Assembly (NCBI RefSeq): GCF_003334765.1
Contig: NZ_QOWT01000010.1
DNA from: Escherichia coli
Lineage (GTDB): Bacteria > Pseudomonadota > Gammaproteobacteria > Enterobacterales > Enterobacteriaceae
DNA: 64,000 nt
Reading direction: 5' to 3' (one strand)
This document shows positions 35,260-35,916 of this stretch, in pieces; the first letter of the stretch is position 1, and each line of letters starts with the position of its first letter. The translations under genes and the position numbers were made by a program. The notes below the pieces were generated by a model. It was not told the origin of the DNA. It did not search any database and worked only from the letters and a program-made list of their open reading frames with translations.

Positions 35260-35502
35260 TTAAAAGGTAACATGACAATGCATGATGAATATAACAACAT
35301 ATGATGTTATGTAATGTGGAGGAAGATCACAAAATTTCGCACAGGATCGCGCTGTGGCTAATGGATGTAGTTATCAAATTGAATTTAAAGTGAAAATATT
35401 TTTACGGGCGGGGGCAAGAAGGACATAGAAACAAATACGCCCTCGGAAAATCCAGAGGGCGTCGGGCAATTAAACCGGTGTTAGCCGATTTCTGTCAGAG
35501 AC

Positions 35503-35670
35503 TTACTGTGCAGTAGGACCGCAACCGCCAATGATTTTAGAAATAGAAATTGCCGGGTGCAGCAGGTAGTCGTAAGAGCAGTTCTTATCACGGTTTTCAA
35601 TATGACCAGTACATGCAGTTAACGTAGCCAGTACTGCACCTACCAGTGCAACTTTAATAAATTTGTTCAT
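35503..35670 (-). CDS. yhfL: Small lipoprotein (55 aa)
   Basis: Not in ORF track (under 60 aa); minus strand encodes MNKFIKVALVGAVLATLTAC.. with a lipobox (LTAC); lies in a very AT-rich intergenic region. Confidence 0.8.
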   Translation of the reverse strand: MNKFIKVALVGAVLATLTACTGHIENRDKNCSYDYLLHPAISISKIIGGCGPTAQ

Positions 35671-35916
35671 TTACATTCCCTATGTATTATATATTAATTA
35701 ATATTCATTGATTATATGAATATAAGCAGACTGCTCGTTAAGAACGATACAGGAATATTTAATTGGCGTCAGTGAGCGAATGACTTAATTTTGTAAGTCG
35801 CTGTAACGGTGAATATAACCCATTAGCAGATAATATTTATTAAGGGGCTATGTTTTATTTGCTGAATATATAAAAAGAGTCATTAAGAAGGCCAGAATTC
35901 TCTGGCCCGGGTTAAA

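Follow-up and report, generated by a model that had tools for sequence, protein, structure and literature searches.

Probable native origin of the AT-rich trough around the small lipoprotein gene yhfL of Escherichia coli

A stretch of chromosome that is much poorer in G+C than the DNA around it, and which carries a single very small gene, raises the question of whether it is a fragment of foreign origin or ordinary native DNA of unusual composition. Such a stretch lies between cysG and frlA in the 64,000-nucleotide segment of E. coli DNA analysed here (hereafter, the window), which represents a K-12-like chromosome read in reverse. The gene order on the minus strand is nirB-nirD-nirC-cysG (cysG at 35917-37290), followed by yhfL (35503-35670), frlA (33871-35208) and frlBCDR, and the genes yhfS to yhfZ are on the plus strand. 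The 761 nt surrounding the trough find a match in each of 5426 complete E. coli genomes, many of them at 100% identity.

Composition and extent of the trough

The initial annotation had described the region between frlA and cysG as far more AT-rich than its surroundings, and a windowed GC analysis bears this out. The G+C content of positions 35260-35916 is 37.6% (0.376) as compared to 52.4% for the 64-kb window, and this is the lowest value of all 657-nt segments of the window (mean 0.524, sd 0.032, z of about -4.8), the next lowest being 0.419. The lowest 200-, 250- and 300-nt segments of the 64 kb are also located in the trough, with GC contents of 0.285, 0.284 and 0.313, respectively. The trough also contains five of the 12 longest runs of pure A/T in the 64 kb, including the longest one of 21 nt (35685-35705), which is positioned just upstream of yhfL; the AT-rich example quoted in the initial annotation maps to 35683-35729. 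In the cysG-yhfL spacer, TpA steps occur at over three times the rate of the window (0.138 versus 0.041 per nt). When compared with the 35 spacers of at least 50 nt within the 64 kb (mean GC 0.447, sd 0.074), the 246-nt cysG/yhfL spacer has the third lowest GC (0.317, z -1.8), and the two spacers with lower values, argD/pabA (0.306) and nirD/nirC (0.312), are both shorter.

The trough is conspicuous because about 700 nt are nearly free of coding sequence, with a mere 168 nt being coding. Its left edge at 35260 is set by an in-frame ATG at 35259, which lies upstream of the RefSeq start of frlA and lacks a Shine-Dalgarno sequence. Since the RefSeq start of frlA is at 35208, the true non-coding stretch extends from 35209 to 35916 (708 nt, GC 0.380). 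The trough is made up of three adjoining low-GC pieces, viz., the cysG-yhfL spacer, yhfL itself and the promoter end of frlABCDR.

Descent and codon usage of yhfL

The sole gene in the trough is yhfL (35503-35670, minus strand; WP_001031834.1; b3369 in K-12), and its features agree with the earlier description of one tiny lipobox gene with two cysteines in the mature part of its product: it has 55 codons and encodes the lipobox LTAC along with Cys31 and Cys50. The protein matches the Pfam family DUF4223 (PF13978) over its full length (E-value 5.4e-38, residues 1-54 of the 54-position model). The GC content of yhfL (0.423) is the lowest among the 66 CDS of the window. This value, the position of yhfL in the lowest-GC stretch of the window, the published binding of H-NS, the fast evolution of the cysG-yhfL spacer and the IS1 copies inserted here in several isolates could all be taken to mean that the trough is a small, horizontally acquired AT-rich islet which carries yhfL and is silenced by H-NS as xenogeneic DNA. 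The initial annotation had likewise considered horizontal acquisition.

The distribution of YhfL argues against such an origin. A search of 5.8 billion proteins identified 269 homologues, all of which belong to DUF4223 and share 58-100% identity, in Escherichia, Salmonella, Citrobacter, Enterobacter, Cronobacter, Erwinia, Serratia, Hafnia, Edwardsiella, Xenorhabdus, Proteus and other genera. At 50% identity, YhfL forms only 46 clusters world-wide, with a few outliers in Aliivibrio, Cellvibrionales and one metagenome-assembled genome labelled Alphaproteobacteria. With one genome taken per species, relatives of YhfL are present in 160 genomes, all of them from Enterobacterales with the exception of one probably mislabelled record. 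The gene order also speaks for long residence: cysG lies directly upstream of yhfL in most Enterobacteriaceae and in Hafnia. Other neighbours vary, with bigA replacing cysG upstream in Salmonella, and frlA, yhfS or, in Salmonella, trpS being found downstream; as the neighbours differ between genera, gene context gives no hint of function. In each of the 70-odd loci examined, the 200 nt that precede yhfL are AT-rich, with a mean GC difference of -0.18 relative to the local background, and across the same loci the coding sequence averages 7 GC points below background. The AT-richness upstream is thus an old property of yhfL and not a mark of recent arrival.

The gene is under strong purifying selection, with dN/dS ranging from 0 to about 0.1. 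For example, comparison with strain E69 reveals eight synonymous and no non-synonymous differences, and comparison with C. sedlakii 21.5 synonymous versus 6.5 non-synonymous ones. Within E. coli, yhfL is matched in 5412 of 5426 genomes, and in 5411 of these 5412 the coding sequence has an identity of 95% or more. No mobility genes, integrase or tRNA are found near the borders of the trough, and the frl operon, whose GC content is normal, is the only unit at the site that varies in presence and absence. Among natural isolates, we also noted some in which IS1 is inserted just upstream of yhfL or in its 5' end, and some in which yhfL is deleted.

The codon usage of yhfL provides a further line of evidence. 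The deficit in GC is found mainly at third codon positions: GC at the first and second positions is 0.464, compared with a local mean of 0.507, and GC3 (0.364) is 3.4 sd lower than the local mean of 0.574. Calculated for 54 codons against a reference set that is likewise small (the translation genes fusA, rpsL and partial tufA of the window, 895 codons), the codon adaptation index (CAI) of yhfL is 0.58, which ranks fourth among 63 local genes, behind fusA, rpsL and slyD. We compared this value with two null models, in which synonymous codons were re-drawn for the same YhfL protein. Under the average usage of 41 ordinary local genes, the mean CAI is 0.348 (sd 0.06) and the probability of reaching 0.58 is 0.00065; under a purely AT-biased choice with the same GC3, the mean is 0.213 and the observed value of 0.58 was not attained in any of 20000 draws. 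As the observed CAI is above both nulls, the low GC3, judged from the codons, is a preference for GGT, GCA, GTT, ACT, TCT and CGT of the kind that highly expressed E. coli genes typically show. Such usage suggests that yhfL is, or can be, strongly translated at least in some conditions, and it argues against a foreign origin.

Thus, of the features associated with xenogeneic islands, low G+C and, in published data, occupancy by H-NS are seen at this locus, but a patchy distribution, mobility signatures and atypical codon usage are not. The Enterobacterales-wide presence of YhfL, its synteny with cysG, a dN/dS far below 1 and the codon usage of a native, highly expressed gene together contradict the proposal of horizontal acquisition. 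On these sequence grounds, yhfL is an ancient, vertically inherited gene and not a foreign one, and the reading of the trough as an acquired islet is largely refuted and, in our estimate, very improbable.

Regulatory DNA on either side of yhfL

The 246-nt spacer between cysG and yhfL comprises, in the direction of transcription, a terminator, a fast-evolving part and a conserved part. The predicted intrinsic terminator of cysG, and hence of nirBDC-cysG, is at 35872-35907 (minus strand), where the stem GGCCAGAG-AAUU-CUCUGGCC (35907-35890) is followed by UUCUUAAUGACUCUUUUU; it folds with an RNA free energy of -13.7 kcal/mol (z -2.9), has a U-rich tail, and the hairpin is kept in all Escherichia and Citrobacter alignments. 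A simple promoter and terminator scan had returned the frlA promoter alone, together with two terminators that are doubtful because they lie within coding or promoter DNA; the scan overlooked the terminators of both cysG and yhfL owing to their interrupted U-tracts, and both were therefore assessed by direct RNA folding. The distal part of the spacer (35775-35889, minus strand, about 115 nt, GC 0.302) aligns poorly even among E. coli haplotypes, with indels, and has neither an open reading frame of at least 25 amino acids nor a match in Rfam.

The proximal part (35671-35774, minus strand, GC 0.279) is near-invariant in E. coli and partly conserved in C. amalonaticus, C. sedlakii and Intestinirhabdus. 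It harbors the Shine-Dalgarno sequence AGGGAA of yhfL (35681-35676), which is conserved across genera, and two candidate promoters. Candidate A consists of CTGACG (35772-35767) and TATCGT (35749-35744) separated by 17 nt, with 8 of 12 consensus positions. Across Escherichia, C. amalonaticus, C. sedlakii and Intestinirhabdus, the two hexamers and their 17-nt distance stay the same although the sequence between them changes, a pattern that one would expect of a real promoter. Candidate B, with TTAACG (35741-35736), 19 nt and TATAAT (35716-35711), outscores candidate A against the consensus (10 of 12 positions) and corresponds to a published in-silico prediction attached to a SELEX peak (PMC3946193). 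However, its -35 hexamer varies within E. coli and its -10 hexamer is lost outside E. coli. We infer a putative yhfL promoter from these patterns of conservation. A palindrome, ATATTCAT-N7-ATGAATAT (35723-35701), also lies in the proximal region; we rejected it as a conserved element, as it is absent from C. amalonaticus and C. sedlakii, and by a rough estimate it could have arisen by chance in such AT-rich DNA.

The suggestion that this AT-rich tract is a target of nucleoid proteins finds confirmation in published data. Genomic SELEX places sites for H-NS and for the RpoD holoenzyme in the cysG-yhfL spacer (Shimada et al. 2014, PMC3946193), and the RpoS (sigmaS) holoenzyme has likewise been placed there by genomic SELEX (PMC5493296). 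In H-NS ChAP-seq of three E. coli strains, the yhfL-cysG spacer is among the 94 H-NS-bound spacers out of 703 conserved ones (Higashi et al. 2016, PMC4720273, S3 Table). Its average pairwise distance in that study is 0.058, compared with medians of 0.016 for bound and 0.0067 for unbound spacers, and cysG itself is flagged as H-NS-bound, with a dS of 0.113 (PMC4720273). Among the 14 conserved spacers of the neighbourhood shown in that table, yhfL/cysG alone is bound, and the two shorter, more AT-rich spacers of the neighbourhood are not (PMC4720273). The H-NS high-affinity motif (Lang-type) TCGATAAATT is not enriched in the trough, with a single match that has two mismatches. The spacer has the length and the TpA content needed for the H-NS occupancy seen in the published data. 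H-NS may dampen the yhfL promoter and loosen the constraint on the distal spacer. Among E. coli genomes, the spacer is less than 95% identical to that of K-12 in 2246 of 5428 records and less than 90% identical in 739. The adjacent 246 nt at the 3' end of cysG are also unusually diverse in E. coli, and the diversity of the spacer may thus partly reflect regional recombination rather than H-NS. Overproduction of Nac has been reported to decrease yhfL RNA 125-fold, and a ChIP peak lies in the gene (PMC5217608). Occupancy by H-NS is hard to square with a codon usage like that of highly expressed genes, and the two would be reconcilable only through condition-dependent expression.

As all five genes are co-oriented, yhfL might lack its own promoter and be transcribed at the end of a nirBDC-cysG-yhfL message, in which case the spacer would be only an inefficient terminator or a processing region. 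In keeping with such read-through, Enterobacter-type spacers (134-153 nt) have no obvious U-tract terminator after cysG, and yhfL mRNA has been checked as that of a cysG-adjacent gene in a Salmonella construct. In E. coli, however, cysG is followed by the stable, conserved and U-tailed hairpin described above, and both the sigma70 and the sigmaS holoenzymes bind the spacer in vitro (PMC3946193, PMC5493296). Furthermore, yhfL follows bigA in Salmonella and is far from cysG in many genera, yet it keeps the AT-rich upstream DNA and the Shine-Dalgarno sequence, and the conserved hexamer pair with its fixed 17-nt spacing points to a promoter. We regard transcription of yhfL by read-through alone as highly improbable.

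A different role for the spacer is suggested by Salmonella, where the Rfam family STnc340 (RF02065) scores 159 bits against the spacer that immediately precedes yhfL, on the strand opposite to the gene; weaker matches are found in Citrobacter youngae (locus L029) and Superficieibacter electus (locus L014). The E. coli spacer might accordingly encode mainly an unannotated small RNA or antisense transcript, the counterpart of STnc340, and H-NS-bound AT-rich DNA is known to harbor spurious promoters (PMC3923964). Nevertheless, a scan of positions 34900-36200 against Rfam found no match at E-values up to 1, and the E. coli spacer could not be aligned with the STnc340-type spacer. The candidate leader of yhfL does not fold into a significant RNA structure (z -0.58), and conservation of the distal spacer is poor even among E. 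coli strains. In addition, the 3' hairpin of the STnc340 model is a textbook terminator of bigA on the other strand, and the family itself may be an artefact of a terminator or a 5' UTR. An RNA gene as the main content of the spacer is thus improbable, though slightly less so than the acquired islet or the read-through.

Downstream of yhfL, a predicted intrinsic terminator is located at 35427-35462 (minus strand), with the stem ACGCCCTC...GAGGGCGT at 35462-35437 followed by AUUUGUUUCU. Its RNA fold has a free energy of -18.1 kcal/mol (z -3.95), none of 200 shuffled sequences is as stable, and it was also found as an inverted repeat. The match to the trough ends at about 35427 in roughly 2100 of the 5426 E. 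coli genomes, and the frlA side is present in 3293. In E. coli strains that lack frl, yhfS directly follows yhfL, and the yhfL terminator, being about 40 nt from the stop codon of the convergent yhfS, probably serves both genes. The order yhfL-yhfS is also seen in E. albertii, E. whittamii, other Escherichia species and several Citrobacter, due to which the frl-less state looks ancestral. From the alignments, the 5.2-kb frlABCDR module looks like an insertion between yhfS and the yhfL terminator, with the junction at about 35427.

The frl portion of the trough (35209-35427, 219 nt, GC 0.374), which contributes the left 168 nt of 35260-35916, coincides exactly with a promoter fragment that Graf von Armansperg and colleagues have characterised (bioRxiv 10.1101/2020.01.13.904318). 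According to that study, the transcription start site of frlA is 75 nt upstream of the ORF, there is a roadblock operator for FrlR, and the promoter is CRP-dependent. In the window, the 5' UTR of frlA accordingly spans 35209-35283 (minus strand), with the FrlR operator GTCATGTTAC at 35276-35267 upstream of the RefSeq ATG at 35208. The sigma70 promoter found by the promoter scan (35288-35331, minus strand) has the -35 hexamer ATTACA (35315-35310), a 16-nt spacer and a TG-extended -10 hexamer TATATT (35293-35288), and is overlapped by a class II CRP site, TGTGA-N6-TCCACA (35331-35315, minus strand). The distal promoter region (35340-35427, minus strand) ends at the frlABCDR junction. A sigma32-dependent start has been reported about 70 nt upstream of the sigma70 start; loss of -219 to -65 cuts promoter output five-fold and overexpression of rpoH raises it three-fold (bioRxiv 10.1101/2020.01.13.904318). 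The yhfL/frlA spacer has also been described as a parallel adaptive target in E. coli colonising the mouse gut (bioRxiv 10.64898/2026.05.27.728231).

Based on these observations, we consider it likely that the trough consists of ordinary native regulatory elements stacked around a single tiny gene and is not a foreign island. Read along the minus strand, the nirBDC-cysG operon would stop at its hairpin terminator, and about 115 nt of AT-rich spacer, which is under little constraint and evolves fast, would be followed by about 100 nt that hold the conserved yhfL promoter, leader and Shine-Dalgarno sequence. The yhfL gene would then be transcribed as a unit of its own, closing at a strong terminator, right after which the accessory frlABCDR module would start, its CRP-, sigma32- and FrlR-controlled promoter filling the remaining 219 nt.

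The YhfL protein and comparison with known systems

YhfL has the sequence features of a bacterial lipoprotein, viz., a charged n-region, a hydrophobic h-region and a lipobox of the type [LVI][ASTVI][GAS]C. Its signal peptide (residues 1-19) carries Lys3 and Lys6 and the hydrophobic core VALVGAVLATL, and ends in the lipobox Leu17-Thr18-Ala19-Cys20, after which Thr and Gly occupy +2 and +3. The motif T-L-T-[AG]-C is conserved in 17 Enterobacterales genera and varies in the distant members only. The mature protein would have 36 residues, with invariant Cys31 and Cys50 that persist even in the most distant members. Gly22, Asn26, Tyr33, Asp34, Tyr35, His38, Pro39, Ser42, Ser44, Lys45, Ile47, Gly48, Gly49 and Gly51 are also invariant in the 17 genera. 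The family core, C-x-Y-D-Y-[LF]-[LF]-H-P ... S-[IL]-S-K-x-I-G-G-C, is present in the window, invariant or nearly so in these genera, and largely retained in the distant Aliivibrio and Cellvibrionales members. The AlphaFold2 model consists of a signal-peptide helix and, for the mature part, a low-confidence hairpin and a short helix; it is weak there (mean pLDDT 69.5, and 53-54 over residues 41-55) and supports neither a disulfide nor a fold. Searches initiated with YhfL against sequences of the PDB gave nothing meaningful (best E-value 0.77), those against NCBIfam gave LptM alone, over the signal peptide only and below the cut-off (E-value 0.11), and PADLOC gave no match.

By sequence rules alone, YhfL would be synthesised as a prolipoprotein that receives its lipid at Cys20 and is cleaved by signal peptidase II, and, having Thr and not Asp at +2, it is predicted from the sorting rule to be sent to the outer membrane by Lol. 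The resulting 36-residue lipopeptide would probably be held by a Cys31-Cys50 disulfide, and we speculate that the most likely role of its invariant YDY-LHP-SISK-IGGC surface is to bind a conserved partner in the envelope. As a tentative suggestion, to which we give rather low credence, YhfL may be an abundant, disulfide-locked outer-membrane lipopeptide that binds a conserved envelope machine or sensor, perhaps in the manner of the small accessory lipoproteins LptM and RcsF, its output being set by H-NS, Nac and sigmaS through the spacer. The extreme conservation seen in the mature peptide, a codon usage like that of highly expressed genes and the absence of an operon partner are compatible with this suggestion, which, if true, would explain why YhfL has been retained nearly unchanged across Enterobacterales.

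The earlier statement that YhfL has no known role agrees with the literature searched, in which DUF4223 is not mentioned. In Salmonella, a yhfL deletion mutant was without phenotype when assayed for agglutination, although there had been two CRISPRi hits. At least in that assay, and in the isolates with IS1 insertions or deletions, yhfL is dispensable.

Much of what the locus contains, including yhfL, its AT-rich spacer, the binding of H-NS and RNA polymerase and the frlA promoter, is already in the literature and carries little weight for genome biology. The trough nonetheless offers a clean example from a native genome of how low coding density and translationally selected A/T-ending codons, and not foreign DNA, account for a low-GC stretch. 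The real accessory unit at the site is the frl operon, whose junction is a few bases from the yhfL terminator. YhfL itself is among the most conserved E. coli lipoproteins without an assigned function and constitutes a reasonable small target for envelope biology.

The gene of the window is the one described by Pfam as DUF4223 and by NCBI as the YhfL family protein, and it shows no differences from these, the window being 100% identical to K-12-like chromosomes. The comparison with STnc340 (RF02065) is of a different kind. The two share a position just upstream of yhfL, where STnc340 is found in Salmonella, but STnc340 is absent from the E. coli window, whose spacer is a different, non-homologous sequence. 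The matches in C. youngae and S. electus fall below the gathering score, and the two palindromes of STnc340 are common to the spacers of Enterobacter and other Citrobacter. To our knowledge, no operator of the sigmaE, RcsB, NsrR, NarL or LacI type fits the spacing of this Citrobacter/Enterobacter palindrome.

The cysG-yhfL spacer resembles the H-NS-bound regulatory spacers of the core genome (PMC4720273, PMC3946193) in being AT- and TpA-rich, in lying upstream of a gene, in being bound both in vivo and in vitro, in overlapping with RNA-polymerase binding sites and in evolving faster than unbound spacers. It differs from them in that the gene downstream, yhfL, is native and has codon usage of the highly expressed type. 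Among small lipoproteins, YhfL is comparable to the entericidins EcnA and EcnB, OsmB, LptM/YifL and Lpp, with which it shares a precursor of 40-70 residues, a classical signal peptide and lipobox, a monocistronic arrangement with its own promoter (a candidate in the case of yhfL) and terminator, and outer-membrane sorting residues. It has no sequence relationship to any of these, and is set apart from them by its invariant core with two cysteines.

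Divergent yhfL haplotype and diversity of the adjoining cysG

A rare and highly divergent haplotype of the yhfL locus is present in E. coli strains E69 (L004) and SCPM-O-B-8794 (L036). When this haplotype is compared with window 35503-35916, which spans yhfL (35503-35670, minus strand) and the AT-rich spacer between it and cysG (35671-35916), the encoded YhfL protein is identical or almost so, the dS relative to K-12 is 0.23-0.31, equal to the level observed to E. whittamii, and the distal part of the spacer (35775-35889) is mostly unalignable. The CysG, NirC and FrlA proteins encoded in the flanks are 99-100% identical. 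Such a level of dS, together with an unalignable distal spacer, between flanks with nearly identical proteins suggests that this short segment was imported by recombination from another Escherichia lineage. The adjoining 3' end of cysG (last 246 nt, window 35917-36162) is also unusually diverse within E. coli, with 1070 of the 5410 records falling below 95% identity to K-12. An average dS of 0.113, about twice the genome median, has been reported for cysG (PMC4720273), and the gene is marked as H-NS-bound (PMC4720273, S2 Table).

The frl module, the frlA start and IS1 insertions

On the other side of yhfL, frlABCDR is a 5.2-kb presence/absence unit (window ~30186-35427); of 5426 E. coli genomes, 3293 carry its frlA side. 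Its insertion point lies between the yhfS stop codon (~30184) and the intrinsic terminator of yhfL (35427-35462, minus strand), with the junction at 35427, and the junction alignment (A4) places REP-like and G-rich repeat elements in the yhfS-side flank of the module in K-12. Both the K-12-type and the divergent spacer haplotypes are seen in frl-plus as well as in frl-less strains.

The ORF listing places the start of frlA at an in-frame upstream ATG at 35259 (462 aa), extending the gene over window 35209-35259. No Shine-Dalgarno sequence precedes this ATG, and the predicted transcription start site is only ~24 nt away from it. At 35208, the annotated start (445 aa) has AAAGG in front of it. 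The left boundary that the initial annotation gave to the AT-rich stretch between frlA and cysG traces this longer ORF and not the annotated start.

Independent IS1 insertions are observed in natural isolates (strains 1283, GPEC1446 and FCI56; L088, L089 and L003, respectively) at the equivalent of window ~35650-35700. In one isolate, IS1B lies ~25 nt 5' of the yhfL ATG; in another, IS1A in the opposite orientation cuts YhfL down to 48 aa; and in one, IS1A accompanies a deletion running from yhfL into part of frlC. The 21-nt pure A/T tract 5' of yhfL looks like a target hot spot for IS1.

yhfL in other genomes and the STnc340 RNA family

Citrobacter youngae ATCC 29220 (L022, L058) has two yhfL paralogues in a single genome, of which one adjoins cysG and the other resides elsewhere in a region of 47% GC, its product sharing 71% identity with E. 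coli YhfL. A record labelled Chryseobacterium sp. 18061 (L076; Bacteroidota) carries an Enterobacteriaceae-type cysG (88% protein identity) followed by yhfL, and this assembly is probably contaminated or mislabelled.

In Salmonella enterica (L086, L087), the large autotransporter gene bigA is directly upstream of yhfL and a convergent trpS directly follows it, so that neither the yhfS-yhfZ cluster nor the frl cluster of E. coli is found there. The Salmonella sRNA candidate STnc340 (Rfam RF02065) matches L087 2325-2453 with 159 bits, covering the spacer directly 5' of yhfL on the opposite strand; weaker matches are found in Citrobacter youngae (L029 2844-2951) and Superficieibacter electus (L014 2863-2950). 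Read on the other strand, the 3' hairpin of the model is a perfect bigA terminator. STnc340, its two palindromes and the bigA-terminator hairpin are all absent from E. coli. These palindromes within the model, namely AGTAGTCC-N7-GGACTACT at about -100 and AAATGGAW-N3-WTCCATTT at 46-67 nt 5' of the yhfL ATG, occur in 26 of the 80 loci, and the latter has just 2 matches elsewhere across ~450 kb of loci. Their conservation in Citrobacter, Enterobacter, Lelliottia and Superficieibacter was spotted independently of the STnc340 model.
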